A stretch of DNA of 64,000 nucleotides from a plasmid (NZ_CP145666.1), one strand, 5' to 3'. Shown: positions 3,430-63,090, counted from the first letter of the stretch. Numbers and translations are program-made. Notes: generated by a model from the letters alone, not told the origin.

Positions 3430-3479
3430 TTCGTCAGCCACCCAGCGTGTGTTTAACTGAAGTTAGTAAACAAAACGAA
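3430..3479 (+). promoter_or_regulatory. conserved promoter/leader motif (TTCGTCAGCC ... TAGTAAACAAAACGAA)
   Basis: Member of a ~20-copy intergenic motif family; lies 21 nt upstream of the ATG at 3500. Confidence 0.55.
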
Positions 3480-3499
3480 AAACATACGCGGGGTGATTT

Positions 3500-3751
3500 A
3501 TGAATACTGCAATTCATCAAGTACGAAATAACGTTCGTCGCACTACATCTGCACGTCCTGTTTGTTATCCAGTTCGCCCGCAGACAGAGAAAGAACTTTT
3601 TTCTGTAGGCCGCAGCCTCTGGTATCGCTACACCACTTCATTTGGCCCGTGCCGTGAAGTTCACCATCATCATGTGCAGCAGCTTGCACACCTGGTGGGT
3701 AAATCTGTTGGCTATGTTGAACATGCCATTAATCATTACCTCACGCATTGA
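3500..3751 (+). CDS. hypothetical protein (83 aa, His-rich)
   Basis: RBS GCGGGG; first gene of a four-gene tight cluster. Confidence 0.5.
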   Translation: MNTAIHQVRNNVRRTTSARPVCYPVRPQTEKELFSVGRSLWYRYTTSFGPCREVHHHHVQQLAHLVGKSVGYVEHAINHYLTH

Positions 3752-3766
3752 ACGAGGCGGCTTAAT

Positions 3767-4039
3767 ATGTCTACTCAAATCTATTGTGCGGTGCTTCGCC
3801 ATTTCATGATGATGGCTGCATCCTCCCAGCACTCATTGATTGTGCTGAAGCAATTATATAACGCAGAGATTTCATCGAAAGCTCACCTGGCCGGTCTCTC
3901 CGTGTCCGAAGCTGAAGCGCTCCTGGCTCTACCATCCACCAGCTGGCGCAAACGCGATGATGTAATTCATGAGCTGAACATTCGCCTTAAGCAACTCACT
4001 AGCGTAGCCACACCGCCAGCTCAACAAGTCGCAAACTGA
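3767..4039 (+). CDS. hypothetical protein (90 aa)
   Basis: Tightly spaced after the previous gene. Confidence 0.5.
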   Translation: MSTQIYCAVLRHFMMMAASSQHSLIVLKQLYNAEISSKAHLAGLSVSEAEALLALPSTSWRKRDDVIHELNIRLKQLTSVATPPAQQVAN

Positions 4040-4052
4040 AGGAGTCTATAAC

Positions 4053-4436
4053 ATGCTGCCATTTCTCATTTTGCTGTTCTGCTCATCGCCTGAGACGGCG
4101 CGAATGATCCTAATCTACGCTACCGATGAATCTGCGGCCCGCCTCCAGGCGCTTGAAGATTTCGCACGTCTGAATGATTCGGGTTTTGCTGCTTCCGCCC
4201 AAACCCCATATGAGTGGGAGAATCCTCACGGTGACCAGCTCTTTATTGAGTCGGTATACCCGGTTCCATCCGGCGATTTATCTGCTATCCGCCGTATGCT
4301 CGGGGATGACGATGCCCCATATACCGACAAGCACCTTATTGCCGGTTTACCGGAGGACAGCCGACGTATCCAGATGATTGAACCGAATGCCGGTACTCTT
4401 TCTCGTATTGCTCAGGCAGAGCAGTACCTTCAGTAG
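4053..4436 (+). CDS. hypothetical protein (127 aa)
   Basis: Strong GAAGGAG RBS. Confidence 0.55.
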   Translation: MLPFLILLFCSSPETARMILIYATDESAARLQALEDFARLNDSGFAASAQTPYEWENPHGDQLFIESVYPVPSGDLSAIRRMLGDDDAPYTDKHLIAGLPEDSRRIQMIEPNAGTLSRIAQAEQYLQ

Positions 4437-4498
4437 ACTTGTGTTCCGACCGCCCACCAGCAGGTGGGCTTCGGGCTAATTTCCTGTACGAGGTATGT

Positions 4499-5203
4499 AT
4501 GCAAGGTACACCACGCTGGTGGCAGAACGGTCGTCGGGTGCAGGCCGTTCTCGCAGAGAATCAGACCGCAGATGTAAGGCTCAATATCGGCCCAGAAAAT
4601 GACTTCTGGTTTACTGATGATGGTAATAATCCTGTTGCTGTGCTTAGGGTTATCGGCCCGGTCTGTCCACTGGATCCGCTAAAATTCACCTCCAGTATCA
4701 CTGATGTCCTTCCTGAAGATGTCCATAGCTATAAAAAAGCCCTTCAGGAACACCAGATGATAAACCGGCCTGTCTCGTTCTATCTTGCACTTGCCGATGC
4801 CTGGTTGCTTGTTAACGAACAGCAGCCGGTTTACCAGTTCCGCATCCGAAACCAGTACAACGGCATGACTACTGAATGGAATTCCGTTGCCCGGGACAAA
4901 GTCATTGAAGTGATTAAGATGCAGCCGGAAACCGCTGAATTCCGGGTTCTCGTCCCATCGGCTCCTGAGCCTGCTGCGAATGCCCGGCAGTTGATCTCAG
5001 AAATTGAAGGTCTGCGTGAAGCTATTGGGAAACTCTACCCGGCAAATACTGATGTACGTCGTATTGCCAGAAACAGCGGCTGGATGCATGTATACGACGA
5101 CACCAATGCCAAAATGAACTTTGCAGACAATGCCAGAAATACCCCTTATCTCGATGCCTTTGTGACTCAACTGCATCTCTTCCTCACAGATGATCGAGAG
5201 TAG
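4499..5203 (+). CDS. hypothetical protein (234 aa)
   Basis: In-frame ATG with GAGG RBS (the track ORF starts at 4439); preceded by a CCCACC/GGTGGG hairpin. Confidence 0.5.
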   Translation: MQGTPRWWQNGRRVQAVLAENQTADVRLNIGPENDFWFTDDGNNPVAVLRVIGPVCPLDPLKFTSSITDVLPEDVHSYKKALQEHQMINRPVSFYLALADAWLLVNEQQPVYQFRIRNQYNGMTTEWNSVARDKVIEVIKMQPETAEFRVLVPSAPEPAANARQLISEIEGLREAIGKLYPANTDVRRIARNSGWMHVYDDTNAKMNFADNARNTPYLDAFVTQLHLFLTDDRE

Positions 5204-5371
5204 ATGTAAAACCTCCCTGAATCTTTCTGCTCTAACCAGCGCTGTCATATAGCATTTTTTTGACGGCGCTGCCGGTTGCGCTTTTATCAAACATGGTAAA
5301 TACATTGTTTCATGCTGTCTGGCTCCCGGGCGCGGAGTTATCGTTGATGGAACCAAGTTGAGATATTCGAA

Positions 5372-6544
5372 ATGAAAAGACCAACGGCACATAAAAATGA
5401 CCGTCTGCCGGTGCGAAGATCTAACCCTACAACGCCTCAAGCAAGAGAGCGCGTTATTGCCGGGCTGGTGGCCTCAGCTACATCTGACTTCGTCTACCTC
5501 GTTCAGTGGCTGAAATCAGGAAAGCAGAACGGTGACCCTCTACAGCTATCCAGATGGGATAGCCTGAGAAATGCAATAAGTCACCTTGAGACGCTTGATG
5601 CTGGTGTACAACCTGACTGGCGCAAAGTCCTCACCCTGGTGTCGCGGGAAATTCATACCAGCCATAATGTCCAGGCGGTTGTTACTCCTCCGTCTAAAAT
5701 CGCCGGTGGTATACTCAGCAACCTTAACGACATCAGCCAGAAGATAGCGACCGGGCTTGCTTCCCCTGACATGCTCGGCAGGCTCGATTATATGCTTCAG
5801 TTGACCGCAGGCCTGGCAGGTGGTGATGATCTGGCGCAAAGCATCCGTAAGGTTTCAGACAGTGCAGAAAAAGCCCTACGTGGTTATGACAAGCCGCAGG
5901 CAAAGGCCAAAACGCCTAAACCGGCCCCACCAGCTCCTGCATTCCGGGATGATCAGACGTTCAGGCAAGAGTGTGCGCCACTGATTGGGGTTGATGACCT
6001 CTTTGTTCTGGCTAATTGCCTTATTGCGATGTCCGCCCGCCTGGGCCGTTCTCCTGTCAGCCTAGCGAAACGCGCAGCGGGTTTAAAAGGTGTGATTAAA
6101 CCCGATATGCTGGCTGACCTGCTGGAGCTCTTACAGCAGGACGTGGATCTGACCGCCCTGGCCCCGCCACCCAGGGTTAAAGACGATAATAGCCGCAGTG
6201 ATGGAGGTAAGCTCGTCGGTTTAACCGGGGTCGTCGAAGGTGGCGCGTCAATCGGTGCTGAAGCGCAGCGTATCATCACCGCAGAACTGAAGAAGCACTC
6301 GCCGCTCACTTCGGCGCAGCGCGTATCTTTCGATACCGCCCGTGCGGGTCTGGCGCTGGAGAGCGATACATTCCGGGTTATTGAAGAGATCAGACGTATT
6401 GCAGCATCACTCAACTGGAGACCGCTGGCTGTCGCGGCCCATGCCGCGCATAAATCGCCTGGTATCCGCCCGGAGATTGCCGGGGATGTGATCACGTTGC
6501 TGGCGCAGGATGAGGCCTTAACCACCAGCAAGCCTAGCCGTTAA
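5372..6544 (+). CDS. hypothetical protein (390 aa, Ala/Leu-rich)
   Basis: Long ORF; no recognisable catalytic motif. Confidence 0.55.
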   Translation: MKRPTAHKNDRLPVRRSNPTTPQARERVIAGLVASATSDFVYLVQWLKSGKQNGDPLQLSRWDSLRNAISHLETLDAGVQPDWRKVLTLVSREIHTSHNVQAVVTPPSKIAGGILSNLNDISQKIATGLASPDMLGRLDYMLQLTAGLAGGDDLAQSIRKVSDSAEKALRGYDKPQAKAKTPKPAPPAPAFRDDQTFRQECAPLIGVDDLFVLANCLIAMSARLGRSPVSLAKRAAGLKGVIKPDMLADLLELLQQDVDLTALAPPPRVKDDNSRSDGGKLVGLTGVVEGGASIGAEAQRIITAELKKHSPLTSAQRVSFDTARAGLALESDTFRVIEEIRRIAASLNWRPLAVAAHAAHKSPGIRPEIAGDVITLLAQDEALTTSKPSR

Positions 6545-6705
6545 GTACCTGCCGCGCTGACTACAGCTTACCTCGCGATATTGCACCAGCAGCTCAGAAA
6601 TAATACCGGTATAAACGTCCGCGTTTTGCCGGTATTTTAATTCGCCCTATTTTTAGAATTAGCGATAATAGCGTTGCTTATTACGTATTTTTACACTCAG
6701 AAACC

Positions 6706-6716
6706 TTCGTCACATG
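6706..6716 (+). promoter_or_regulatory. promoter-motif copy (TTCGTCACATG) with no downstream protein gene
   Basis: Its extended flank matches the copy at 57075; followed only by start-stop and 8-11-codon mini-ORFs. Confidence 0.4.
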
Positions 6717-7176
6717 AATAGGGTATGGTTCACTGAATAGACAAAGACGTTAAATCTGGTCAGCTACAGAAAGGAGGATTTATGTAAATGCTCTCGTTAC
6801 GTTCAAACTCTTAAAAAACTGCCGCGCCTGCCTATATAAGCCAGGCTGTAGACCTGAAGTCTACAAATTTAGCGTTACTGACAATTCACAATCCAGTGAA
6901 CCGGCCCACACTAAGGAGGTTATATGCGAACGCGTAACTTTAAATCTGAGTCTATGTAATCTGATCAGCTGGCGCTGCCGAGAATGGCGGACTCCGCTAC
7001 CCCGGTGATAGACCGGGGTAGCAGGAAGAAAGAGTAACGATTTACCGGTTTTAAAACCAAATTTTCGTCAAATGGGATACAAGCGCCCAAGGCCGGTTCC
7101 CGTCTGACAGACCGAAGTTGTGATGTGTGCATCGCCCCCCTGGAAGTTGTTTTATTGAATTGCTGTGTGTAGTTTT

Positions 7177-7203
7177 GCGGGGATAATACCCCGCTTTTTT
7201 TTT
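7177..7203 (+). terminator. rho-independent terminator
   Basis: GCGGGG-ATAATA-CCCCGC stem-loop followed by T9. Confidence 0.6.
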
Positions 7204-7214
7204 GCTTATTCTTC

Positions 7215-7225
7215 TTCGTCACCCC
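7215..7225 (+). promoter_or_regulatory. promoter-motif copy (TTCGTCACCCC), upstream box only
   Basis: Intergenic, upstream of the gene at 7331. Confidence 0.35.
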
Positions 7226-7330
7226 ACCTTCCTGTGCCATCATACGTATAGAAAATAACTTTTCACTTCTGACCCTTTTTCAGTTGAAGTCTTATGATTT
7301 GATATTCCGCTAATACACACACATTAAGGA

Positions 7331-7672
7331 ATGAAAATGAGCAACGATATTCATAACAAAATTGCTGATGCTTTAGCTTCTGTTGGTTTAAAACTTTCCG
7401 ATGGATATACCCGGGCCGCACTCTTACTGAAGATGAAAGGTTCAGTTAGTCTCAATTTTGCTGTTGATGGCAAACCTGTCACTGTCACTCTCCATATGAC
7501 TGAATCGGGTGATGTTACTGCTACCACTGATTATGACGATTCAACCGCTACTGCCGCAGCAGCAGCCGCAGCCACTACAACGCCAACACAAGAGTCGGTG
7601 GAAAAACCAGCAGAAGAGTCGGTGGAAGAGCCAGAAAAAAGTAATACACGAAAAGGCCCAAGGCCTAAGTAA
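7331..7672 (+). CDS. hypothetical protein (113 aa, Ala/Thr-rich acidic C-terminus)
   Basis: AAGGAA RBS; terminator immediately downstream. Confidence 0.55.
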   Translation: MKMSNDIHNKIADALASVGLKLSDGYTRAALLLKMKGSVSLNFAVDGKPVTVTLHMTESGDVTATTDYDDSTATAAAAAAATTTPTQESVEKPAEESVEEPEKSNTRKGPRPK

Positions 7673-7720
7673 TAACTGCGCTGGAACTACATGTTGGCAT
7701 AATTATAAATATCAAAACTG

Positions 7721-7745
7721 GCGGGGTTAAATCCCCGCTTTTTTA
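7721..7745 (+). terminator. rho-independent terminator
   Basis: GCGGGG-TTAAAT-CCCCGC stem-loop followed by T6. Confidence 0.6.
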
Positions 7746-7757
7746 TGCCCGATTTCC

Positions 7758-7802
7758 TTCGTCACCTGAATACCCCGTGAGACTATAAGTAAACAAAACG
7801 AA
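7758..7802 (+). promoter_or_regulatory. conserved promoter/leader motif, full copy
   Basis: TTCGTCACCTG ... TATAAGTAAACAAAACGAA; the ATG at 7820 lies 18 nt downstream. Confidence 0.55.
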
Positions 7803-7819
7803 CAACACGGGGCAACGCC

Positions 7820-8413
7820 ATGACCACCAGCAAAGAGAAAAATGTATTCTACGTTCACTACTATGAATCCGACTCCAGTGGTGGCGAACTGCCACTGATG
7901 CGCATTGAAGCGGAGAACGAAGATGAAGCCAACCTGATCTGTCTTCGCAACCTCGCGGATGTTTATGACGTTGATCATGACGACATCAGTCTTGAAGACG
8001 GCTTCGAAGTGAACGGCAATAGCGTTTATCTGCAAGGTATCTACCCGGCGACCTCAGAGCAGGCACTGGTAGTTGATGCGGTATTTAATATGACTTCTGT
8101 AGAACCAGTCGCTGAGGCTGTGACCGGCACGGCGGAATCCGCCTGCGGTATCAGCCTGGTCTCTGATAAGGTCTGGCTGGAAAGCTGGTTCGACCTCGAA
8201 GACAAATTTGCTGATCAGATGGCCCACGTCGCTGAAGATGACAAGTCTGATACACGCTTCTTGCTCTACCGTGACCAGGTCATCGATGTGCGTGAATGCG
8301 AGACATCTTCTGTCCCAGGCTGGGATCTCCAGTTCGGCTTGAGCGGCGGTACGCAGATGCTATTCATTCGCCTTTCTGATGATGGCGATCACGTTGCACT
8401 GGGTCTCGAATAA
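7820..8413 (+). CDS. hypothetical acidic protein (197 aa)
   Basis: ORF directly downstream of a motif copy. Confidence 0.55.
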   Translation: MTTSKEKNVFYVHYYESDSSGGELPLMRIEAENEDEANLICLRNLADVYDVDHDDISLEDGFEVNGNSVYLQGIYPATSEQALVVDAVFNMTSVEPVAEAVTGTAESACGISLVSDKVWLESWFDLEDKFADQMAHVAEDDKSDTRFLLYRDQVIDVRECETSSVPGWDLQFGLSGGTQMLFIRLSDDGDHVALGLE

Positions 8414-8505
8414 CTGCTGCCTGCGCCCGGGCTTGTTTGCCCGGGTTGCTCCCCTCCCCTGAATCAAACCGAGTATCATGACATCATTCTGAGGAGTACC
8501 AGACG

Positions 8506-8772
8506 ATGAGCGAAGTAAAGCACTTCAGCATCACGAAAACCGTTGATTTTTACATCAATGAAGCATCCCCGGAAATTATTGCGGGCCGCAGGATCTATCT
8601 GGAAACCGTATTGATTCCTCGCCTTCGTACCGGCCTTGCCGTGCTCAATAAGATGGGCCTGACCGAGCGTGAAGATATGGAGCTGCGCGATGTGTACCAG
8701 CGTGGCGTGGAATTTTTTGACAAATTGTTCGATGGCCCTGTCCCGCAGGCCAATACCACCACCAGCCACTAA
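8506..8772 (+). CDS. hypothetical protein (88 aa)
   Basis: Strong GAGGAG RBS. Confidence 0.55.
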   Translation: MSEVKHFSITKTVDFYINEASPEIIAGRRIYLETVLIPRLRTGLAVLNKMGLTEREDMELRDVYQRGVEFFDKLFDGPVPQANTTTSH

Positions 8773-8808
8773 TCCGCAAATTTTGTCCTTTTTTTACCCG
8801 GCTCTGAC

Positions 8809-8853
8809 TTCGTCACCCGGGTAACCAGTGATTTAATAAGTAAACAAAACGAA
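8809..8853 (+). promoter_or_regulatory. conserved promoter/leader motif, full copy
   Basis: TTCGTCACCCGGG ... TTTAATAAGTAAACAAAACGAA. Confidence 0.55.
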
Positions 8854-8880
8854 CATACCAATAATCACTGGGGATGCACC

Positions 8881-9339
8881 ATGTTTAAAAGTCTGTCTGA
8901 ATTGATGACCAGCGTTGGCAAGACTGATGCGCATAAAGTCTCGATAGTCCAGGTTAAAACCGGTGTCACCTCGTGGGGCCGCAAAAACCAGTCATCCCGG
9001 CCTACGGCTGAATACCAGATCTGGATGGATACTCCTGACAACGACAGTCGTATCGTCCTGAAGCTGAATTTCGTGCTGAGTTCCCGCCGTAACCAGCCTG
9101 AGAAGAATGCGCCCCTGAATATTGAAATCAGCCAGTACGCTAACTGGGATACGGTGAAACGCGCCTGGGCGGAATGCGCTCCTGAACGCTATATGCGGCT
9201 GGAGAATGAAACGACAGATGAGTTTATGTCCACCAGCGGGGTCTGGGAAGAAGCATCCGTCATCACCAATGACATGCAGCCGGATTACCGCTACTTCTAT
9301 CCAGGCACGTCCTATTACGTGGCAAACGACAGCTACTGA
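8881..9339 (+). CDS. hypothetical protein (152 aa); paralogue of the 9375 gene
   Basis: Shares the V.TG(V/I)TSWG ... DxPDNxSRI ... FVL pattern with the next ORF. Confidence 0.55.
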   Translation: MFKSLSELMTSVGKTDAHKVSIVQVKTGVTSWGRKNQSSRPTAEYQIWMDTPDNDSRIVLKLNFVLSSRRNQPEKNAPLNIEISQYANWDTVKRAWAECAPERYMRLENETTDEFMSTSGVWEEASVITNDMQPDYRYFYPGTSYYVANDSY

Positions 9340-9374
9340 AGCCAGAAAACACACCATATAACCGAGGATCTACC

Positions 9375-9851
9375 ATGACCGACGCTATCCAGACTGCCCC
9401 TGAAAGCTTCAGCCTTTCTTCCCTGACCGACCTGTATCGCACAGTGCAGGCAACCGAGTCCCACGCTCTTTCAATGATGCGTGTCCAGAGGGGGATCACC
9501 TCCTGGGGGAGCCGTCGTATAACTGACCGCCGAACTGAGGGGTTCACCGTCTTTCTGGATGCGCCGGATAACGCCAGCCGTATTACTGTTAAAACGGAGT
9601 TCGTGCTGAATGCAGCAAAGACCGGCCCTGATACGTCTAATGATCTGGTGGTGGAAGCGCGTGAACATTCAGGCTGGGATGAGAGCCGGAATTGTTTCAC
9701 TGTTACCCGCGAGATCGGCGAACTGCGGGTTAATGCTGGTGGTGAAAATCATGCTGCTACACTTCGTCAGCTGTGGAAGCTGCTTCACGCGCAGGCAAAA
9801 GCCTACCAGTCCAGAAATACTGCCGGTAACGCCACCTGGCTTATGTTCTGA
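9375..9851 (+). CDS. hypothetical protein (158 aa); paralogue of the 8881 gene
   Basis: Tandem paralogue; RBS GAGGAT. Confidence 0.55.
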   Translation: MTDAIQTAPESFSLSSLTDLYRTVQATESHALSMMRVQRGITSWGSRRITDRRTEGFTVFLDAPDNASRITVKTEFVLNAAKTGPDTSNDLVVEAREHSGWDESRNCFTVTREIGELRVNAGGENHAATLRQLWKLLHAQAKAYQSRNTAGNATWLMF

Positions 9852-9919
9852 TAAGCCCCGGGCATGGTAATGTGCGTCACGACATTACGCCGTGGCGCAC
9901 TACGTTCGTTTAGAAGGAA

Positions 9920-10201
9920 ATGAAGATGAAAATAAGCCAGCTGGAAGTCGGGATGAGTGTCTGGTCGGTTAGCCGGGTAAATATGGGCAACACCACACTT
10001 AAAACAGTTGTCGTCCACCCGGTCGTGATTGTCGAAGTCCATGATAACCACGTCATAGCCACCTGGAATGGTAACGCCCCGCGTCGTTTCGGTGAGTCCG
10101 TCGTTAAGGGCTGGAAGAAAGAAAAGCCGTTGCTGATCCGTGAAGGTTTCGGGCAAATGCGCCTGGCTACCAGGGAAGAGAAAGCGCTGGCTGGTAAGTA
10201 A
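9920..10201 (+). CDS. hypothetical protein (93 aa)
   Basis: AAGGAA RBS. Confidence 0.5.
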   Translation: MKMKISQLEVGMSVWSVSRVNMGNTTLKTVVVHPVVIVEVHDNHVIATWNGNAPRRFGESVVKGWKKEKPLLIREGFGQMRLATREEKALAGK

Positions 10202-10206
10202 CCCCC

Positions 10207-10217
10207 TTCGTGACCTG
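10207..10217 (+). promoter_or_regulatory. promoter-motif variant (TTCGTGACCTG)
   Basis: One mismatch to the family core; upstream of the gene at 10316. Confidence 0.3.
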
Positions 10218-10315
10218 TATGACCCGTGGTGTAATGGCTCCGACAACCTGGCAGTTTTCGCAACGCAACACTCTGCCGCAAATCACCCTCCACGGGGCCA
10301 GACAGGGAATACACG

Positions 10316-10588
10316 ATGACCGATGCCATTCTCTCTGAAGAGCTGTACTTCAAATACCTCAACACCTACGAACGCGAAAGCAGGTTTCGCATTGACTCTT
10401 TTCGCTTTGATGGCGAGCCTCAGTGGACAACCAAATTCGGTCAAGCTCGCATCCGCCCTTCTCAGGTACGTGTACTGCTCTGCCGCTGCGGGGCAAACAA
10501 CTGGAAAGACGATGGCAGGTTCGCCAATGAGTACTGCTGCGACAGCTGCGGACAGTTCGTGGAGGTGCTACAGCATAACGACCGTTGA
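10316..10588 (+). CDS. Zn-ribbon protein (90 aa) with C-terminal CRCGAxNW...EYxCDxC; paralogue of the 29160 gene
   Basis: The C-terminal cysteine pattern is shared with the ORF at 29160. Confidence 0.5.
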   Translation: MTDAILSEELYFKYLNTYERESRFRIDSFRFDGEPQWTTKFGQARIRPSQVRVLLCRCGANNWKDDGRFANEYCCDSCGQFVEVLQHNDR

Positions 10589-10674
10589 TTCGCGTCCCGG
10601 GGCCGGAGCTGATGGCTCACTGATAAACCATTTCAGACCGACATATTCATTCTGATAATACCCGACGTATCGCC

Positions 10675-10726
10675 TTCGTCACCTGCCGGGCCCGTGTTGT
10701 ACTGGTATCAGTACAACATAAAACGA
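10675..10726 (+). promoter_or_regulatory. promoter motif plus perfect 10-bp inverted repeat (TGTTGTACTG-gtat-CAGTACAACA at 10695-10718)
   Basis: TTCGTCACCTG upstream box followed by an operator-like palindrome; precedes the helicase operon. Confidence 0.5.
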
Positions 10727-10742
10727 GATCACGGGGCGCATC

Positions 10743-11048
10743 ATGCAGACACTGACCGACGTATTCAGCGATAAGGCGAATAAAGCCTTTCATTCGATTT
10801 TCGCCGATTTCCTGCCCACCAGCGCGGATGGGGTAATCACCTTTACGGTTCGCGGCTATGGCGGAAAAACTGCCTGCATGACCGTCCCCTCTGGAACCCC
10901 GGTTTTCGTCTTTGGCACTGAAGAGCTCGCCGACTTCCATCGCTCCGCCGTGGCGGGTGAATTCTACATCGTTGATCACGGTGGTTTCCGCACCCTGAAT
11001 CAACAGGTAGAACGTGGCCGCGTCCCAGTCATCTACGACATCCTCTGA
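10743..11048 (+). CDS. hypothetical protein (101 aa)
   Basis: First gene of a four-gene operon that contains the helicase. Confidence 0.5.
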   Translation: MQTLTDVFSDKANKAFHSIFADFLPTSADGVITFTVRGYGGKTACMTVPSGTPVFVFGTEELADFHRSAVAGEFYIVDHGGFRTLNQQVERGRVPVIYDIL

Positions 11049-11060
11049 AGGGATCCGATT

Positions 11061-11354
11061 ATGGCAATCGACACAGTTTACCGCCTGCGGCTCGATTTCG
11101 ACGTGTATAACGGCGATGTCATCGACACCAAAGAGCAGGAAGACAAAGACCAGATCTCCATTGCGAAAATCACCCAATTTATCTTCGATGCCTCCGTTCG
11201 GCTCAAGCTTGATGCCTGCGAAACCAGCGATGGCGGGCCAGCACATGGGCCTTACTGTGTTCTTGAGCACTGCAACCGAGCTGTACTGGAACAGGCCGAA
11301 ACTGAAATTAAACGCTATGTGAGACGCTTTAAAGGCCATTCACTGGAAGACTGA
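11061..11354 (+). CDS. hypothetical acidic protein (97 aa)
   Basis: GAAGGGA RBS. Confidence 0.5.
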   Translation: MAIDTVYRLRLDFDVYNGDVIDTKEQEDKDQISIAKITQFIFDASVRLKLDACETSDGGPAHGPYCVLEHCNRAVLEQAETEIKRYVRRFKGHSLED

Positions 11355-11448
11355 TGAACCCGGTACATCCACCAGCATGAGGATGTACCTGACTTCGATA
11401 GCCGCTGCCGGGCTGTGCCTCCTGAGCAGCAGAGGACAAGGTACGGAT

Positions 11449-13521: not shown

Positions 13522-13541
13522 TCAACAGTCGAGAGGTTGCT

Positions 13542-13862
13542 ATGCATAAAATTGAATGCCCACGCTGTCTGGGTGGTAAGGGTGAGATCCGAGCGTTCCG
13601 GCACGTTCAAGGCGGTGTGTGTTTTCGCTGCAAGGGCCGGGGGTATGTCGAGGTGAAAACCATCCCGAAGCCTTCTATCCGGTTTGTTGCTATGCAGAAA
13701 TGGGCAAATCCAGAGGACGTTAACTACAACAATGGGGATTTTATCAGGACGTTCTATTTCAAGGCCCGAAGTCAGGCTGAAGCAACAAAGAAGCTTCAGA
13801 AAAAACTCGGCGCGTCAGGTCGTGAGTTTTATGCCACTCCTGCGGATGATGTCCAGCAATAA
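13542..13862 (+). CDS. DnaJ-type CxxCxGxG zinc-finger protein (106 aa)
   Basis: CPRCLGGKG and CFRCKGRGY repeats; sits 20 nt after the helicase stop. Confidence 0.5.
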   Translation: MHKIECPRCLGGKGEIRAFRHVQGGVCFRCKGRGYVEVKTIPKPSIRFVAMQKWANPEDVNYNNGDFIRTFYFKARSQAEATKKLQKKLGASGREFYATPADDVQQ

Positions 13863-13949
13863 ATGGGGGCGTTTTGTAGTGGTTTATTCACTCTGAAATC
13901 TATCACTCTGGTTATGATTGGTTTCGAAACAAATGACAGGTGGTAACAC

Positions 13950-52073: not shown

Positions 52074-52192
52074 CCCCCCCAACGATAAAATCAAAGTATC
52101 ACAAACAATATGTCCCCCATTTAAGCCATTAGAAACACCATGTCCTAGTACAATAGCGGCAACATGGCTAAAGCCGGGGGAAGGAGATCATA

Positions 52193-55100
52193 ATGACGGG
52201 TATCGTGCGCATTGAACAACCGGTAGAGCGAATTGAACGTTTCCATTCTCTTCAAGGCGGTCAGTACTGGCGGGCAAATGAAGCCATTGCTGAAGAGAAC
52301 ATTGCCGCTTCCGAAGTACTGCTGATTGAATCGCTGCGTTGGGTCGACAACAAACTGCATACGGTCATTCTGCGCACCCACCCATCAAAACATGGCCAAC
52401 ACATTCGGTTTGAATATACCGATGAATCTGGCCGCACTTGTGGCACTACCCGTAGCTTCACTCAGCACCGCTTTTTGTTTGATGACTTCGTTAACAAATT
52501 CACCTTTGCTGCTGACTCGAAAGAAGTCCGCGAAAGTGAAGTGCAGGCCTGCCAGCAGTTGGCTCAGAAGCTGACCGTTGAACTTTCCGAGGCGATGACA
52601 AACCCTGAACGCATGAAAGAGATCATTGCGGAACGCCTTGAAAAAGAGCAGACAGAAAAAAGCGAGAACAAACTCAATACTCTACCCGCGACGATTGACC
52701 AGTACACAAACCTCGCCACCGGCCCGTTAGAAAATGCGCTGACATCCGGTGTCAATGAGGAAAGCATTAAGGGAATGATGGAAGCGGCTCGGCATGGACA
52801 TAAACTGGCCGTCATACAATCTGAATGGCTACAAGGTAAGAATAACGAAATTACCAGGGCCGTTCAGGCCGTCGTACCCTATTACCAGGAAATGGCTGCG
52901 GCGCAGCTGGCCGCATTCGAAGAGAGCAGGGAGAACGTTGAATCGCTGATGAAAGGGATTGCGTCTCTGGATCTTTTCATCGGCAAAGATGTTGTCGTCA
53001 ACACGATAATCAAAGGCAATTCAGCCCCGAGCGACATTCCTCTGACATTTGTCCAGAAAAAGCTACTGATGGATGAGGAGCTCGCTGTCTATCTGGATCT
53101 GGGAGACTGGTTCGATTTCACCAAAGCAGATTTATTCGACCAGGCACTGCAAAAACACCCGGGCCTAATCGAGCAGATTTTCCCGACCCAACGTTGCGTA
53201 CTGGTTATGGCCGTCACCAGACGGCACGTCAATTATCAGGATCCGTGGGAGGCTGCGGCCAAAGACTTTCAAAACAGATGTGTCTTCCTGCTGGTACGAG
53301 ACGGCGAAAATATTTACCAGGTATGCAGCCCGGTTGAATCTCATCTGGGCGCTCATACGCTGTTCCCTGAACGTGACGAGCAGGACGCGCTTTTTCGCGG
53401 TTTTGACGGTTCTCGCATCACCTTCCGCGATGTAGCTTACACTGACCGGCTGCGGGCGCATGAAAAGATGGCGCTGCACTATAAACGTTTCCTGATCCTT
53501 TGCTGCGGGCTCGACCAGCGTGAGCGCCTGTTTGGCGAATTCTATGATCGCAGTAGTAACATTAATTTCATCTCGATGGACTTCCAGGAGAAATATTGCC
53601 GCTTTATTCATGACGCAGATGGAACCGGTCTGTTGAGTGACCCGGAGGCCGATACCAGACCATCGCTGGAGTCCTACATTAAGCAGGCGAACCAGCACCT
53701 GCGTTCTGGTTCACGCGTCTTTTGTGAGTGGAGACAGGTCGTTAATCCGGTTACCGCACCCGGGGCAGCTAAGGATGATTCAGGTAACGGCTACCGGGGA
53801 CATTCATTCACGGTTGATTTCGTTAAAAGCCGTAGTACCAGCGTGGCATACCAGAAGAATGAAGAGATCTACGTTGATGTGCCAGTCGTTCAGCACACCT
53901 ACAGCCGTAATGCGAAGTCAGACAAACGAGAATTCAATGCCAAGGTATGCCTCTCAAAATTCAGAACCTCTGATAGCCTTGGCTATCTTTGCCTGGACAC
54001 GGTGAAATCCGCCGATCTCGAATATTACATTCACAACCGGCGTATCCGGGCTAACCATCTTTATTACATCCGGCTCTTCAAAGAACTTGCGGCACTGCTG
54101 AAGCTGGAAGAAACGCATGAAGAACAATACCGAAGCAAAATGCTGGCGGCTTTAAACGCCGGGAACATCGGTGACGAAAATGACCGGGTTGCGGCTGTAG
54201 ATAAAACGATTCAGACGTGGCGCTGCGCAAACCGAGGTGCATCCCTCCAAAGTGGTCTGGAAGATGAGAAGCAATGGAAAGCGCTCCTTGCCATGATGGA
54301 TTTAATTGCATGGCGAGGTCATGCAAGCATCCCGCAAATTGAATGCTACTGTGAGCAACTTGGAAACTCTCCTCTACGGCTTGTGGTAATGCCAAACGGC
54401 AAACTGGGCCTGTATGTAGCCCCACGAGCTGAAGAACGAAACGATGCAGCTGAGAAACACAAATGGGCTATACGTGTGGTATTGAGTCTGACGCGTACCG
54501 GTGTGAAAGAGGTATCTCGCTCATGGGCTCTGGTTAACGAACTGAGCGTATCTGAATGCACCCTCAAAGAATGGCCGCTGGTGGATGAGTGGAAAGGGTT
54601 AAAGTCTGTATTTGAAAGCTACGACCGGAAACTTAAAGCTCTGGCAGACATTGAACTGGGCCGTGAGACTCTCAAGCGTCTGAATCCCAGCAACCAGGAA
54701 GGTCTGAGCGAGCTGGCAGAATTGTGGATTAATGCTTTTGAAGAAATGAACTTCTACCGACCGACTGGCGGGATCGTTCAAAAGCCAGTAATGATGATCC
54801 CGATTGGTCTTATTGTCGACCGTGAGGAGTGGTCATACTTATATCTTGGTACACGCGGCTCTGCGGTCGAGTATATCTATCAGAATCTGAATGATAAGGC
54901 ACTCAAGGCCCGGGTAGCCCACCGTCTGATTTCAAATTACGAGGTCAAAGAGGGTAAGCTCGATAATCTTGCCAATAAGAAAACAAGTCTGGGTCTCTTT
55001 TGCACAAAACAGCGCCCGGACATGGCCCCTTTTAGCGCAGACCGAAACATAGAGACATATGGGCCTGATTTCGGCGTTAACCATGCTGTGCTTACGCATA

Positions 55101-55570
55101 TGGTATCGTTTAAATCGCAGATAGCGCTGATTCAGCAAGAGGCAGATCGCGGCTTACACCGTCGCTTCACGATAGCCAGCAACCTGGTCAGTTCAGCCGG
55201 GGAGTTGCTTATCGATCAACTGCTCGGCGATGCGGCGCGAGATGCAGATGAGCCGGTAGATATTCTTGAGGTGGTTATTAACCCAGCGCCAACCGGTGAA
55301 CCAGGGGCGAAGCTGAAGAAGAATGGTGAGACATTCTGGCATAAGCACTGGTGTGATTTGTGTAAGCCAGGAACCGAAGAAAGCCTGGCACTCTCCCACA
55401 TTCACGCGCCGGATCACGTCATTACGCGGACTTCGTTCAGTTCCAAGGAGGATGCCATCCTCTTCGTACTCAAGACGATGCCGCAGGCCAGAAAATACGA
55501 AAAGGATTTCTTCCGCGACAATGATTTCGATGTACCTGATGGGATTATTGAACGGTGGATAGACCGTTAA
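52193..55570 (+). CDS. very large hypothetical protein (1125 aa)
   Basis: Uninterrupted ORF with GGAAGGAGA RBS and its own terminator; no recognisable motif found by reading. Confidence 0.65.
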   Translation: MTGIVRIEQPVERIERFHSLQGGQYWRANEAIAEENIAASEVLLIESLRWVDNKLHTVILRTHPSKHGQHIRFEYTDESGRTCGTTRSFTQHRFLFDDFVNKFTFAADSKEVRESEVQACQQLAQKLTVELSEAMTNPERMKEIIAERLEKEQTEKSENKLNTLPATIDQYTNLATGPLENALTSGVNEESIKGMMEAARHGHKLAVIQSEWLQGKNNEITRAVQAVVPYYQEMAAAQLAAFEESRENVESLMKGIASLDLFIGKDVVVNTIIKGNSAPSDIPLTFVQKKLLMDEELAVYLDLGDWFDFTKADLFDQALQKHPGLIEQIFPTQRCVLVMAVTRRHVNYQDPWEAAAKDFQNRCVFLLVRDGENIYQVCSPVESHLGAHTLFPERDEQDALFRGFDGSRITFRDVAYTDRLRAHEKMALHYKRFLILCCGLDQRERLFGEFYDRSSNINFISMDFQEKYCRFIHDADGTGLLSDPEADTRPSLESYIKQANQHLRSGSRVFCEWRQVVNPVTAPGAAKDDSGNGYRGHSFTVDFVKSRSTSVAYQKNEEIYVDVPVVQHTYSRNAKSDKREFNAKVCLSKFRTSDSLGYLCLDTVKSADLEYYIHNRRIRANHLYYIRLFKELAALLKLEETHEEQYRSKMLAALNAGNIGDENDRVAAVDKTIQTWRCANRGASLQSGLEDEKQWKALLAMMDLIAWRGHASIPQIECYCEQLGNSPLRLVVMPNGKLGLYVAPRAEERNDAAEKHKWAIRVVLSLTRTGVKEVSRSWALVNELSVSECTLKEWPLVDEWKGLKSVFESYDRKLKALADIELGRETLKRLNPSNQEGLSELAELWINAFEEMNFYRPTGGIVQKPVMMIPIGLIVDREEWSYLYLGTRGSAVEYIYQNLNDKALKARVAHRLISNYEVKEGKLDNLANKKTSLGLFCTKQRPDMAPFSADRNIETYGPDFGVNHAVLTHMVSFKSQIALIQQEADRGLHRRFTIASNLVSSAGELLIDQLLGDAARDADEPVDILEVVINPAPTGEPGAKLKKNGETFWHKHWCDLCKPGTEESLALSHIHAPDHVITRTSFSSKEDAILFVLKTMPQARKYEKDFFRDNDFDVPDGIIERWIDR

Positions 55571-56206: not shown

Positions 56207-56398
56207 TCACTTATTCTTGGTTTTTTTTAATACTGGTAGTCCTGCAAGCGCATCGTTCCAATGCTGCTCGCGTTCCTCATTACCTGAAATATTACTTATC
56301 CATCTTTCGGACTTGCCCCAGCGCTGTGCCAGCGCCTGCCGCGTCCAGCCTTTGCGTTTCATCTCTGCTTTAAATTCATCGCTGGTGGGTTTGTACAT
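56207..56398 (-). CDS. small putative DNA-binding protein, possibly Ner/Nlp-like (63 aa)
   Basis: KGWTRQALAQRWGKSERWISNI resembles an HTH of the Ner family; weak RBS. Confidence 0.35.
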   Translation of the reverse strand: MYKPTSDEFKAEMKRKGWTRQALAQRWGKSERWISNISGNEEREQHWNDALAGLPVLKKTKNK

Positions 56399-57074: not shown

Positions 57075-57128
57075 TTCGTCACATGAACGACCTATGGTTT
57101 ACTGAATATAACGACAACGAACCATAGG
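57075..57128 (+). promoter_or_regulatory. promoter motif (TTCGTCACATG) plus 9-bp inverted repeat CCTATGGTT-N20-AACCATAGG
   Basis: The extended sequence is shared with the copy at 6706; precedes the gene at 57138. Confidence 0.45.
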
Positions 57129-57137
57129 CCAGAAAAA

Positions 57138-57683
57138 ATGACACTTCAAAAAGCCAACGAAAAACGTATTGAAAACTTCCTAGCCAAACAAATTCGTCAT
57201 AACGGTAAGATTTTATCAATGCGTGAATTTATGGATTCACTCATTGCTGACGGCTATAGCCCACGTGCAAAAGCGGAACAGAAAGTAGGACACCCCAGCA
57301 GCCGTCAAACCTTTCGCTGGAACAACGAGCAGCAAAGGGAGCACCAGATTAAGCGAGCTCTGGGGGGTACTGTTCTGAAATATTCAATGGTGTCATCTGA
57401 CGGCTCATTTTATGACATTGAAAAAATTGCCTATGATTACGTCATTGAAAAAATGGGCGGGGTTAACGTTAAGCCGGAAACGATGTGTTTTGCGATTTTC
57501 AACAGCCCTTCATCATTGCGGGGCGGGAAGAGAGAGCGCTGTGTAGCTGTCTATAGCCGCACTGTGGCAACAGAGGAACAACGGGTCAGGAGCATGTTAT
57601 CTACTGACTTCACGCATTATGATCTGGTCTGGTTCGGTGAAGCCACTTCCCAGAAGGAAGCGCTGGAACTAGCCGAGGGATAA
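57138..57683 (+). CDS. hypothetical protein (181 aa)
   Basis: ORF with a terminator-like hairpin downstream. Confidence 0.5.
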   Translation: MTLQKANEKRIENFLAKQIRHNGKILSMREFMDSLIADGYSPRAKAEQKVGHPSSRQTFRWNNEQQREHQIKRALGGTVLKYSMVSSDGSFYDIEKIAYDYVIEKMGGVNVKPETMCFAIFNSPSSLRGGKRERCVAVYSRTVATEEQRVRSMLSTDFTHYDLVWFGEATSQKEALELAEG

Positions 57684-57755: not shown

Positions 57756-57766
57756 TTCGTCACAAG
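57756..57766 (+). promoter_or_regulatory. promoter-motif copy (TTCGTCACAAG)
   Basis: Upstream of the gene at 57820. Confidence 0.35.
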
Positions 57767-57819
57767 CATGTGGGTGGTAATATAGACATATAGGCAATCA
57801 CATTCAACTGGAGGCTAAT

Positions 57820-58122
57820 ATGTCAGATTTAATTGCAGCAAGATATGATGAAGTATCAGCTTCCGAGTTTGAAGATGATATGGTTGTCATTGTCATTACC
57901 GATGAACAGAGTGAAGATATTGAGGTTATTTCAGACCTTGATGATCTTTTCGTTAATACTGAGGTTGTGGTTATTGATGGTGACGCTTTAGAAGTCGACT
58001 ATGATAACGCTGGATATTTTTCATCAGAGAATAGCTATGAAGTTTCAGTAGACGATATGTTATTCGACAATACCGTTGGTGAGCAACTTATGGATTGTGG
58101 TTTTTTCGGCACTCAAAGCTAA
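57820..58122 (+). CDS. very acidic small protein (100 aa)
   Basis: GGAGG RBS; D/E-rich; a possible DNA mimic, which is speculative. Confidence 0.5.
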   Translation: MSDLIAARYDEVSASEFEDDMVVIVITDEQSEDIEVISDLDDLFVNTEVVVIDGDALEVDYDNAGYFSSENSYEVSVDDMLFDNTVGEQLMDCGFFGTQS

Positions 58123-61000: not shown

Positions 61001-61060
61001 CTCTGACGATGTGCAGGGAGGGAGGGTTCCAGGCCGTCATCTGACAGCCCGGAGGGAATG

Positions 61061-62179
61061 CTAGCTGGCGGGATTGTTCTTTTTCTGGCTTCTAAGGCTG
61101 CGAATGTAGTGAAGTTCTTCAGCTGTTAAGTCATGGATGGTTAACGTTTCATCCCCATCAATGGGCTCATCTGGTGGGCACAATTCACCTTCCAGTGGCT
61201 CACCATTATTTTTACCCGACGTGCCATTGTTCTCCTCATCAGCATCACCCTCGCCATCACCATCAGGTGGTGGTTGGATATTGTTCAGATTCAAATCAGG
61301 ATCGCGTTTGTGGATCTGGAAATAAACCTTCCCATCTTTTTTTACTTCGGTGTACTGAAGGTAACCAATGGATGCCAGCTCCTCCAATGCCTTACGTACT
61401 GTGGCGTTCTGGCTGTTGGCACGGGTCTTAAGATTTAATCGGTTCTTAAGTCTCGTTAAGGAGATCGGGATTGGATTTGGTGGAAGTGACTCAATGAACG
61501 TGTAAAGCGCCTGTGCGCTCTCTTTTTTCGCCAGTTCCTTGATAGCCTTCAGCTGCATCAAAACCTTGTGGTCGTACTGATACAACTCGAATATCTTAGG
61601 GTCTATCTGTAGCTCTACCTGATCAGAGTCCGGGTCAAGCAAGGCAGACTGCACCAGGTGCGTCGTATACACCTTTGACGAGTGGGTGCTGGTGAAGGAC
61701 AACATCACGGATGCCAGCCTGCGTAACGACGCGTCGATACGCTTACGGGATGCGGTAGAGGAACGATAATTTTCAGGGTTACAGAGCTTCAGAAACTCAG
61801 TAAATTTGAGGCTGATCTTATCGTTATCAATCGGATGGTTAGCTAGCGTTCGGATGATTCCCATCCACGTTTTGAAGTCAACAGACATATCGAGGCGCTG
61901 ACCCACGATCGAGATATTGGTGAAACCCTCGCTCTCCATCAAAGAAAGTGTCTGTAGTTCTTTCGTGGCATCAAAGCCAACAGTTTTGTATTCACGACTC
62001 TGACGGCCAACGCTTTTTGGTGATGGCACAAACAACCCAAGGCGCATGAGCGCGATAGACTGAACCGTCCTGCTGCTATTAGGACGTAAAATAATTTCTT
62101 TACCTGTCTCTCTCTCTGTTACAGAGAAAGCCCTGGTAACCATCTGGCCTTGCTGCTCAGAATCTTTCTCATTGGTCAT
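61061..62179 (-). CDS. repA: plasmid replication initiator (RepA-like, iteron-binding)
   Basis: 372-aa minus-strand ORF flanked on both sides by iterons and AT-rich or GATC-rich origin-like DNA; start uncertain (62179 or 62143). Confidence 0.65.
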   Translation of the reverse strand: MTNEKDSEQQGQMVTRAFSVTERETGKEIILRPNSSRTVQSIALMRLGLFVPSPKSVGRQSREYKTVGFDATKELQTLSLMESEGFTNISIVGQRLDMSVDFKTWMGIIRTLANHPIDNDKISLKFTEFLKLCNPENYRSSTASRKRIDASLRRLASVMLSFTSTHSSKVYTTHLVQSALLDPDSDQVELQIDPKIFELYQYDHKVLMQLKAIKELAKKESAQALYTFIESLPPNPIPISLTRLKNRLNLKTRANSQNATVRKALEELASIGYLQYTEVKKDGKVYFQIHKRDPDLNLNNIQPPPDGDGEGDADEENNGTSGKNNGEPLEGELCPPDEPIDGDETLTIHDLTAEELHYIRSLRSQKKNNPAS

Positions 62180-62400
62180 AGTGGTTTATCGACTGTATTA
62201 ATCAACAGATTATTGAATACTATCGCCCAAAGCCCTCAGTGTCACTTAAGGGATCTCTGCGACGATCTCAGATTGTGCATAAGTCCAGGCTAAAAAAACG
62301 CCACGACTAAATATAAAACTCTGAAATTCACATAAAAACAAATACATACGTAGTTTATCAACAAAGGATCAATTCCGGTGAAAAAGATCCTTTAAAAAAT

Positions 62401-62500
62401 CACTACCATTGTCGCCGCAATCACTACCGTTGTCAAAAAACTCACTACTACCGTTAAAAAACTCACTACCAATGTCAAAATAATCACTACCGTTGTCACC
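62401..62500. repeat. five phased iterons (CACTACCGTTGTCA-like, ~21-bp spacing), origin-proximal set 1
   Basis: ATCACTACCATTGTCG / ATCACTACCGTTGTCA / CTCACTACTACCGTTA / CTCACTACCAATGTCA / ATCACTACCGTTGTCA. Confidence 0.75.
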
Positions 62501-62817
62501 GATTGGCTTCCAGGCCTTGTGCCGTCTGGCTTCCGAGCTGCGGGGATCTCTTGTGATCTATGGGAACTCGTAAGGTACTAATTATTGGAACTACCTTGTG
62601 GAAAATGGGGATAAATTCTCTCTTCGAGTTAAATCAACATCGAATAGCTAAATTGTCGAAAATATGTACGGGCATGAAAGGAAAATGCGTATAGAAAACA
62701 GTGGATAAGATTTTAATAATTTTGTTTCATCATACAGGTGATAGATGGTATCTATATGAATTATAATAGAAATATACTCAAAACTCTTTAAGAGTTATAC
62801 CTTCAGATCACACAATA

Positions 62818-62925
62818 AAACTCACTACCATTGTCACAAATACTCACTACTAACGTCGAAATAGTCACTACCAATGTCATTTTAATCATTACCAATGTCA
62901 AAAAAGTCATTACCATTGTCATAAA
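62818..62925. repeat. five phased iterons, set 2 (a duplicate of set 1 plus the adjacent GGGATCTCT...TTGGAACT segment)
   Basis: The same iteron consensus is followed by a paralogous GATC-containing segment. Confidence 0.7.
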
Positions 62926-63042
62926 ATGCCCTTGAGCCCAGTAACCATGCGGCTTGCAGCGTACAGGGATCTCTTTTGTACTCCGTTGCACCTTTGGGAT
63001 CTCTTTATTGGAACTGTCCTGTGGAAAAGTATCTTTTTTGCC

Positions 63043-63090
63043 TTCGTCAGCTACTGACTCGGTGCTTTACTGATTGTGTAAACAAAACGA
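63043..63090 (+). promoter_or_regulatory. conserved promoter/leader motif, full copy
   Basis: TTCGTCAGC ... GTAAACAAAACGA; the ATG at 63105 lies 15 nt downstream. Confidence 0.5.

Follow-up and report, generated by a model that had tools for sequence, protein, structure and literature searches.

Why should one short sequence recur before gene after gene on the same plasmid? The question is raised by plasmid NZ_CP145666.1, of which we analysed one strand of a 64,000-nucleotide stretch, read 5′ to 3′ and hereafter called the window. Intergenic regions between positions 3,430 and 63,090 carry the sequence TTCGTCA(C/G)C(T/C)G (the box), followed in some cases by a second box, GTAAACAAAACGAA. A sequence-only reading of this DNA had counted about 20 such sites and proposed that they link most of the accessory genes into one regulon, either as sites of an element-encoded regulator or as a conserved 5′ leader RNA. 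We conclude, with moderate confidence, that each copy is the self-contained start of a transcription unit, and that the box docks a plasmid-encoded factor co-regulating about 25-30 promoters. Some 25 single genes or short operons of this large Citrobacter resistance plasmid are arranged in this way. The window itself is the third of an IncT-like (Rts1-related, MOBH) conjugative plasmid that lies nearest to the origin of transfer (oriT) and mobI.

The motif greatly exceeds chance. Its exact form (TTCGTCASCYG) occurs 13 times in the window, always on the + strand, where shuffled sequences predict 0.14 copies. Matches to the second box with up to two mismatches also number 13, of which 12 are on the + strand; the expectation is 0.6. 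Iterative refinement of a 40-nt weight matrix on the sites yielded 26 + strand copies, with one or two weak matches on the - strand. By the RefSeq gene models, 23.7% of the window is intergenic, yet 24 of these 26 copies are (binomial P = 2e-13); the outcome that the sequence-only reading had named as refuting it, a motif no more frequent in intergenic than in coding DNA, did not occur. Twenty of the 26 lie 59-84 nt upstream of an annotated start codon. Every site listed by that reading does bear TTCGTCA or the variant given for it, although three copies were overlooked (22559, 36754 and the variant TTCGCCAGCTG at 45179) and two entries hold only in part. The site at 10675, listed as bipartite, has the promoter module and no GTAAAC box within two mismatches; at 7064 there is a heptamer only, without a -10-like hexamer, and the copy is doubtful. 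The claim that the motif ties most accessory genes into one regulon was overstated, as only 23 of the 50 + strand intergenic gaps of at least 55 nt in the window bear it. Among the 82 + strand genes, 77 have a copy somewhere upstream and no opposite-strand gene in the interval; this is an upper bound on membership, given that terminators and other promoters intervene.

Alignment of 25 copies on the box (position 1 being its first base) reveals a promoter-like anatomy. TTCGTCA (positions 1-7) is all but invariant, conservation stays strong over positions 8-11 (C/G, C, T, G), and positions 12-20 are variable and C-rich; nothing upstream of the box is conserved. T21 (14/25) and G22 (19/25) place a TG one base upstream of a hexamer at positions 24-29, (T/G)(A/T)(T/A)A(A/C)T, as in an extended -10 element. 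Within the hexamer, A27 is present in 21 of 25 copies, T29 (its sixth position) in 22, and A at its second position in 12. Two flavours can be told apart: GATAAT-like, which fits sigma-70, and TTTAACT- or TTTACT-like, without the usual A at -11. Exactly 17 bp lie between TTCGTC and the hexamer, so the box fills the -35 position, and a 12-bp gap separates the hexamer from the full box of positions 1-11. The second -35 position is a non-consensus C in all 25 copies, which bears out the earlier suggestion that the conservation goes beyond what sigma-70 needs. A promoter-type module before genes, as had been proposed, is thus supported by its intergenic placement, its distance from start codons and its -10-like hexamer at fixed spacing.

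The main reason to see the element as a promoter, and not as RNA transcribed from upstream, is the terminators that abut it. A T-run is common at -18 to -12, and for at least six copies it forms the tail of a terminator hairpin whose end lies 9-19 nt ahead of the box, too close for another promoter to fit between. A terminator-like hairpin with T-run lies within 70 nt upstream of 6 of the 26 copies, compared with 5.6% of random positions, in agreement with the earlier remark that several copies directly follow rho-independent terminators. Counted from the first base of the box, transcription would start some 36 nt downstream. The box would then lie upstream of the start and form no part of a leader, contrary to the leader-RNA proposal; only the GTAAACAAAAC box, in the subset that has it, would be transcribed. 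That box is found in about seven copies, beginning at +32 or +36/37, and its varying distance from the TTCGTCA box makes it a separate module around the start site. An inverted-repeat operator, TTCGT...ACGAA, formed by the box and the GTAAAC box, was rejected on the same varying distance and because the CG is missing from pPROV024-OXA copies. Boxes of the GTAAACAAAACG type also stand alone, with no TTCGTCA box, at 245-258, 456-469 and 757-770 in the non-coding stretch after mobI, and as GTAAACAAAACGGATG upstream of traK, traF and an AcaB-like gene of the related plasmid pCFA1707-1 (128056, 154990 and 140743(-)); none was found at the Rts1 tra promoters. On its own, this box may be the site of a second regulator.

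Comparison with divergent plasmids, found by protein search with the DndC-like gene of the window, is what points to a dedicated factor. Plasmid pPROV024-OXA (Providencia, 64% identity) has the same architecture, in which TTCGTCAGC(G/T)G is joined by an equally spaced -10 and by GTAAACAAAAC. A variant, TTCGACC(C/T)C, is present in Rts1 in about 25-28 copies, again outside the tra block; their consensus is TTCGACCCCC-N-cGTGnGATAAT with the same 17-bp spacing, and their hexamers are mostly GATAAT. The box is kept before orthologs of only 28-68% protein identity (genes 8881, 15544, 20522, 27987, 41459, 46026, 52193, 57138 and 63105). Six orthologous promoter pairs of the window and pPROV024-OXA show 100% identity over box positions 1-7, against 26% (random) in the spacer, 36% in the upstream flank and 65% in the TG/-10 segment. 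Rts1 boxes depart from those of the window in a systematic way, at positions 5 and 7 (TCA to ACC, at about 25 Rts1 sites). Drift or selection on promoter strength would not shift some 25 sites jointly, and a DNA-binding factor of lineage-specific specificity is the simplest explanation for the concerted change from TTCGTCA to TTCGACC. The box therefore probably binds a plasmid-encoded regulator.

The relatives also hold features of their own. A few TTCGTCAG copies occur in Rts1 in a duplicated segment at 36-46 kb. Rts1 (NC_003905) has paralogous backbone segments at 33-50 kb and 70-105 kb (dnaN, dam, rdgC, DUF1064, DUF2726, DUF4942), the first with TTCGTCAG-type and the second with TTCGACC-type boxes, which suggests that it is a cointegrate of two lineages with different box variants. 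In pPROV024-OXA, a repeat containing CCCCTGCAAACATGC occurs in about 20-29 copies on one strand and is possibly iteron-like. The TTCGTCA box is not present in IncC pAM04528 or in pVPS91 (pAQU-like), which instead carry, at 1470-25790 and 680-30090 respectively, their own intergenic modules of about 60 nt ending in GTGCGATAGCTGGTCGCCAAAAACAAACAGCA. These come in two types, ending (G/T)GCGATAGCTGGTCGCCAAAAACAAACAGCA, with small hairpins such as CTCT-TCGG-AGAG, and look like an analogous, apparently undescribed promoter family.

The spacer carries a further, site-specific signal. Positions 8-24 complement the 28 nt that precede the start codon in the unit's own gene, with a mean duplex energy of -12.2 kcal/mol for own pairs against -8.8 for mismatched ones; none of 5000 permutations reached the own-pair mean (p < 0.0002). 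Paired arms include CCTCGTGA/TCACGAGG (45506) and CACCCAGCG/CGCGGGGTG (3430), the 3′ arm being the Shine-Dalgarno (SD) region. Two dyads previously described as operator-like are real, a perfect 9-bp hairpin at 10695-10718 and the 7-bp arms CCTATGG/CCATAGG within 57091-57128; they belong to this general spacer/leader pairing. We modelled the RNA of each unit either as read-through from upstream or as starting at +36, and calculated the cost of exposing SD and AUG. In read-through RNA, this predicted cost is +3.7 kcal/mol for 22 motif genes and +0.84 for 57 controls (p = 5e-4), and the extra opening cost exceeds 2 kcal/mol in 13/22 against 13/57. The predicted helices at 45506 (13 bp) and 3430 (extended) loop out the -10 and leader, and the matching short RNAs are unstructured. 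Occlusion of the ribosome site in read-through RNA is thus plausible for about half of the units.

Such an arrangement resembles T4 genes e, soc, 49 and I-TevI, where long transcripts bury the ribosome site and a promoter in the 5′ arm yields a translatable RNA (PMC3014915). Here too the promoter would lie within or over the 5′ arm of the helix that pairs with SD and AUG, by prediction; unlike in T4, the prediction (about 13 of 22 units) concerns an entire promoter family and not single genes. The same pairing could instead belong to a riboregulator, a 5′ leader transcribed from upstream whose spacer/SD helix would be OFF by default and be opened by a protein or small RNA acting at the loop (UAACUGG, GUAAACAAAACGAA) or at the UUCGUCA box. 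That would account for the predicted site-specific burial of SD and AUG and for the conserved GTAAAC box in the loop. We regard it as quite unlikely, as strong terminators close to several boxes leave no upstream promoter, the -10-like hexamer sits at fixed spacing, pairing is absent in about 40% of copies, and no Rfam family matches (an Rfam 15 scan of the 64-kb window at gathering thresholds gave 0 matches).

Several observations weigh against promoters served by a plasmid-encoded factor. The start site is placed by geometry only. In about half of the copies (TTTAACT, TTTACT), the A at -11 is missing, normally a requirement of sigma-70, and a simple sigma-70 consensus scan picks only two copies (TCGTCA-16-TATGAT and TCGCCA-16-GATAAT). 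With 4/6 matches to TTGACA each, TCGTCA and TCGACC might be used by sigma-70 unaided. For a dimeric repressor, an asymmetric, single-copy site such as the box would be unusual. Neither a sigma factor nor a MotA/AsiA homolog nor an obvious global repressor was found among the 89 window proteins and neighbouring regulatory genes. Finally, the complementarity is partly generic, a C-rich spacer facing a G-rich SD, and its site specificity is only a trend in Rts1 and pPROV024-OXA (p ~0.07 each).

Some of these points would suit plain host sigma-70 promoters that need no dedicated factor, with TCGTCA as a 4/6 -35 at 16 bp and the likeness among copies owed to descent or selection for strength. The two copies found by the consensus scan score as sigma-70-like, many copies have the TG before the -10, and the protein scans revealed no regulator. 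This explanation is nevertheless unlikely: it leaves seven box bases essentially invariant beside a random spacer, a conserved C where sigma-70 prefers T, and a whole Rts1 set shifted in concert to TTCGACC.

In the mechanism we favour, with a plasmid-encoded factor at the box, a sigma-70-type -10, (T/G)WTAAT and often TG-extended, would be served by a box, TTCGTCA(C/G)C(T)G, at about -36 to -26 that replaces the -35 hexamer. RNA starting near +36 would carry a short A/C-rich leader of 25-45 nt, opening in a subset of units with GTAAACAAAACGAA. About 25-30 such promoters would span oriT/mobI through the maintenance and replication region, many of them insulated by an upstream terminator. In roughly half of the units, read-through RNA would bury its own SD through the C-rich spacer, whereas locally started RNA would leave the SD free. 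As to the sign of regulation, we lean slightly to repression over activation. A repressor on the -35 position is favoured because extended -10 copies, especially those of Rts1, should work without a -35; it would allow a burst of expression when the plasmid enters a naive cell and silence the genes afterwards, in the manner of KorA/KorB or ArdK. An activator, which would be MotA-box-like or of class II, is kept in play by the copies without A at -11 and by a geometry matching T4 middle promoters.

In T4 middle promoters, a MotA box centred near -30 replaces the -35 about 12 bp from a sigma-70 -10 that is often TG-extended. Here likewise, an asymmetric box of 9-11 bp lies near -30 with a 12-bp gap to the -10. 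The differences are the box itself (TTCGTCAC rather than TGCTT), the absence of any MotA or AsiA Pfam match in the 89 window proteins, and the host element, which is a plasmid. A bolder form of the activator idea, which we rate as rather unlikely, is that a plasmid protein redirects host RNA polymerase by sigma appropriation in the manner of MotA/AsiA. Conjugative entry would then start a phage-like early-to-middle programme, in which box-less genes near oriT are expressed first and their product switches on some 25 box promoters, while occlusion restricts translation to transcripts that the programme itself initiates.

Which protein might act at the box? Pfam was run on all 89 window proteins, joined as linked polyproteins, and Pfam with NCBIfam on candidate regulators and neighbouring regulatory genes. 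Families recognised were MobI, DinG, Lar, CcdAB, RES-Xre, HNH, ParA/ParB, DnaB, PAPS-reductase/DndC-like, AAA ATPase and HAD; matches to the Serglycin family were discarded as an artefact of the GS linkers joining the proteins. An element-encoded regulator is still the best reading of the motif, as the box changes in concert between lineages, although no regulator was identified. The anti-sigma factor that had also been suggested as the motif's factor found no support. The recognisable DNA-binding candidates are an orphan ParB-like protein (41459-42634, HTH_ParB) and a 63-aa helix-turn-helix protein (56207-56398, - strand). The orphan ParB-like protein is conserved in all three lineages, always behind a strong copy of the box. 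ParB and KorB sites are usually palindromic, whereas the box here is not, and both proteins are no more than leads. Sequence comparison of the orphan ParB-like protein with the PDB gave no match. P1-type boxA/boxB half-sites for ParB were rejected for want of a box cluster near parAB, and the first three genes after mobI, as immediate-early regulators, because they have no Rts1 homolog. Comparison with the consensus sites of CRP, FNR, CpxR, PhoP and sigma-E, -28, -32 and -54 gave no fit.

The distribution of the box along the plasmid bears on two further explanations. Over its first 20 kb, the window matches more than 90 Citrobacter, Klebsiella and Enterobacter plasmids at 100% identity, among them pCFA1707-1 (NZ_CP110911.1, 227 kb, MOBH relaxase). 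The window starts, by annotation, inside mobI(A/C) and runs through ccdAB, Lar, dinG, parAB, a second ParB-like gene, dnaB and the DndC-like gene to a RepB-type replication gene. Directly upstream of it lie ParM/StbA, SLT, an FlhC-family regulator and a traN/G/H/F cluster; farther off on the plasmid are F-type tra genes and an AcaB-family gene. Rts1 (IncT) parallels this plasmid in gene order and content. A 2024 study placed Klebsiella and Citrobacter 'repA(pKOX)' plasmids beside Rts1 and mapped the Rts1 oriT between orf251 and mobI/orf252 (PMC10838148). The labels 'phage-plasmid' and 'island' attached to the element earlier do not suit an IncT-like MOBH conjugative plasmid with Rts1-like gene order; megablast of window 1-20000 against a phage collection gave no match, and identity with a known phage or phage-plasmid was rejected on that ground. 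In the full pCFA1707-1 sequence (reassembled from six segments), strong + strand copies of the motif occur only at 173.5-226 kb and 57.5-70 kb. They trace a backbone that runs from mobI past the replication gene, is broken by a resistance island and continues through ssb, dnaN, dam, rdgC and DUF4942; ssb, dnaN and the DUF4942 gene each have a copy immediately ahead of them. No copy lies within the tra blocks (105-165 kb) except one on the opposite strand at 165485, which precedes a 256-aa gene adjoining the FlhC gene.

Proximity to oriT/mobI, uniform gene orientation, hairpins and cargo of leading-region type (Lar, ccdAB, ssb, and psiA in Rts1) might suggest Frpo- or ssi-like single-strand DNA promoters or priming signals, active on the transferred strand before complementary-strand synthesis. 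Frpo elements are indeed common in leading regions (PMC11541004). We nevertheless consider this very improbable. The predicted helices of 6-13 bp do not rebuild a double-stranded -35/-10 but leave the -10 and start region in a loop of some 28 nt; the box stays unpaired, there is no long imperfect hairpin, and the elements extend over more than 78 kb, beyond the replication gene.

The FlhC- and AcaB-family genes raise the question whether the boxes are sites of an FlhDC-type master activator, an AcaCD/SetCD homolog encoded beside traN that governs a transfer regulon. AcaCD-type promoters also lack a -35 (PMC5058578). The chance of this is slight: the AcaCD core GCCCAAAATGGGC (PMC5058578) is unrelated to the box and absent from the modules, nothing upstream of the box is conserved, and TTCGTCA is absent upstream of mobH, traL, traK, traN, traF and traA. 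In IncC plasmids and SXT/R391, AcaCD/SetCD boxes place many operons under one factor (PMC4207636, PMC5058578), and the parallel lies in membership of the same wider MOBH family and in promoters without a canonical -35. The box described here is unrelated, much shorter, absent from tra promoters and attached to another gene set.

Global regulons of promoters and operators are a kind of system already known on plasmids; for this motif, we found no earlier description. Familiar examples of such systems are the KorA/KorB operators of IncP-1 plasmids and the repressor network of IncW R388. In the IncN plasmids pKM101 and R46, CUP elements are bound by ArdK (PMC6289460, citing Delver and Belogurov 1997). 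The likeness lies in a short conserved sequence that many leading and maintenance promoters share, placing establishment genes under one plasmid-encoded regulator, here a putative one. The box differs in being unrelated, single, asymmetric and at -35, whereas CUP/ArdK and KorA/KorB use a palindromic operator or a repeat of about 150 bp, and it has more copies (about 25-30). No relative of ArdK, KorA or KorB was recognised except the orphan ParB-like protein, with no search aimed at ArdK. Full-text searches for the motif strings returned only unrelated primers and papers, and the Rts1-promoter literature held nothing relevant; the original 2002 description of the Rts1 genome fell outside this coverage, and an earlier mention is possible. 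The pattern TTCGTCACCTG-N9-GTG, searched over 596 Gb of genome contigs, gave only single chance matches in unrelated taxa, being too unspecific.

Plasmids of this type, with more than 100 near-identical relatives in Citrobacter, Klebsiella and Enterobacter, bear clinically important resistance genes. Uncharacterised genes make up about one third of the backbone, and one cis element before some 25 units provides a direct experimental handle on them. Should the factor be a repressor, its removal or titration might turn the plasmid into a burden; an activator remodelling RNA polymerase would represent a mechanism so far undescribed for plasmids. A link between promoter choice and translatability, if true, would extend the T4 trick to conjugative plasmids.

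Individual copies, all on the + strand and quoted with their weight-matrix scores, vary around this scheme. At 3430-3499 (31.8), the box TTCGTCAGCCA (3430-3440), TGnTTTAACT (3450-3458) and GTAAACAAAACGAA (3466-3479) begin 70 nt before the ATG of gene 3500-3751, which four more genes follow; its read-through RNA is predicted to fold at -26.9 kcal/mol (z -4.1) with SD and AUG buried. The gene-free region 6545-7336 (about 800 nt) contains three TTCGTCA heptamers (6706, 7064, 7215) and may be a non-coding RNA or a decayed gene. Within it, 6706-6745 (30.7) combines the box with TGnTTCACT and has no annotated gene behind it, only an SD and an ATG-TAA mini open reading frame, and a weaker module (TTCGTCACCCC) at 7215-7336 (21.8) directly follows a terminator (7177-7194) and precedes gene 7337-7672. 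Another terminator (7720-7739) directly precedes the module at 7758-7819 (37.2), which has its GTAAACAAAACGAA box at 7789-7802, serves gene 7820-8413 and has a spacer, CCCCGTG, that pairs with CACGGGG at the SD. At 8809-8880 (37.2), with a GTAAAC box at 8840-8853 and the pairing CCAGTGAT/ATCACTGG, the module stands before gene 8881-9339, whose Rts1 ortholog is preceded by TTCGACC.

An exact 11-mer at 9763-9773 lies within coding sequence 9375-9851, lacks a -10-like hexamer and is a doubtful copy. The variant module at 10207-10315 (31.3; TTCGTGACCTG, TGnTGTAAT) precedes gene 10316-10588 and has a spacer/SD duplex of -23.3 kcal/mol. In the module at 10675-10742 (37.2), the 9-bp hairpin at 10695-10718 lies over the -10 and start region, ahead of gene 10743 and an operon that includes dinG. 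Modules at 15467-15543 (20.0; TTCGTCAATTG, GATAAT), before gene 15544 and then Lar and others, and at 20460-20521 (33.0; GATAAT class), before gene 20522-21076, both have Rts1 orthologs preceded by TTCGACC. The overlooked copy at 22559-22617 (18.1) lies 59 nt before the ATG of gene 22618-22905. It is followed by 24601-24662 (22.6), with a poor -10, before gene 24663-25106, and by 25649-25724 (35.6), with a GTAAAC box at 25684-25697, before gene 25725-26279. The GATAAT-class module at 27923-27986 (31.7) precedes gene 27987-28304, the Rts1 ortholog of which is preceded by TTCGGCA. Gene 30228-30392 has its module at 30155-30227 (33.4), and gene 32931-33452 at 32871-32930 (33.6), with an SD opening cost of +6.4 kcal/mol in the predicted read-through RNA.

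Just after parB and its terminator, a module at 36754-36809 (25.4) falls within the annotated 5′ end of coding sequence 36726-37211. The annotated GTG start is probably wrong, the real one being the in-frame ATG at 36810 with GAGGTGG 5 nt upstream. At 39249-39309 (27.8), the module of gene 39310-39483 is the TCGTCA-16-TATGAT copy of the consensus scan. The module at 41375-41458 (37.1) precedes the orphan ParB-like gene 41459-42634 and the dnaB operon, and its box is kept before the pPROV024-OXA and Rts1 orthologs. The overlooked variant at 45179-45243 (28.2), TTCGCCAGCTG with GATAAT, precedes gene 45244-45444. The top-scoring module, at 45506-45570 (40.8), precedes gene 45571-45936, and a predicted 13-bp helix buries the SD of its read-through RNA (z -2.75). 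At 45963-46025 (34.1), the module of the DndC/PAPS-reductase-like gene 46026-48461 and seven more has its box in pPROV024-OXA and not in IncC or pVPS91. The 1125-aa gene 52193-55570 has a module at 52063-52192 (27.2), with the box kept before the pPROV024-OXA and Rts1 orthologs. The module with arms CCTATGG/CCATAGG, 57075-57137 (35.4), precedes gene 57138-57683, and 57756-57819 (18.7) precedes gene 57820-58122. Lastly, 63043-63104 (29.4), with a GTAAAC box at 63078-63091, stands before gene 63105-63353, beyond the rep gene, and the box is kept before its orthologs. Outside the 26, an Rts1-type variant (TTCGACCGGC) at 29440-29497 before gene 29498, and ATCGTCA variants before genes 2386, 17118 and 58234, are possible degenerate members.

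Some features of the window stand apart from the motif. Right after mobI, a gene-free stretch of 876 nt (226-1101) holds several hairpin-plus-T-run structures and a tandem 21-nt repeat, GTTAGTGAGCCTTCAGGCGAT, at 294-314 and 317-337. The three genes that follow (1102-3378) have neither the box nor Rts1 homologs. A 91-aa hypothetical protein encoded at 9926-10201 bears the PLSDB label 'Brucella suis mprF, defensin resistance' (RGI, 100% identity), which looks like a spurious database entry and not a resistance gene. The Chi site GCTGGTGG is the most over-represented 8-mer of the window, counted 29 times on + and 17 times on -, where about 0.8 per strand would be expected. A Chi excess is found also in Rts1 (64/44), IncC pAM04528 (15 on +) and pVPS91 (11 on +), and may serve as protection against RecBCD.

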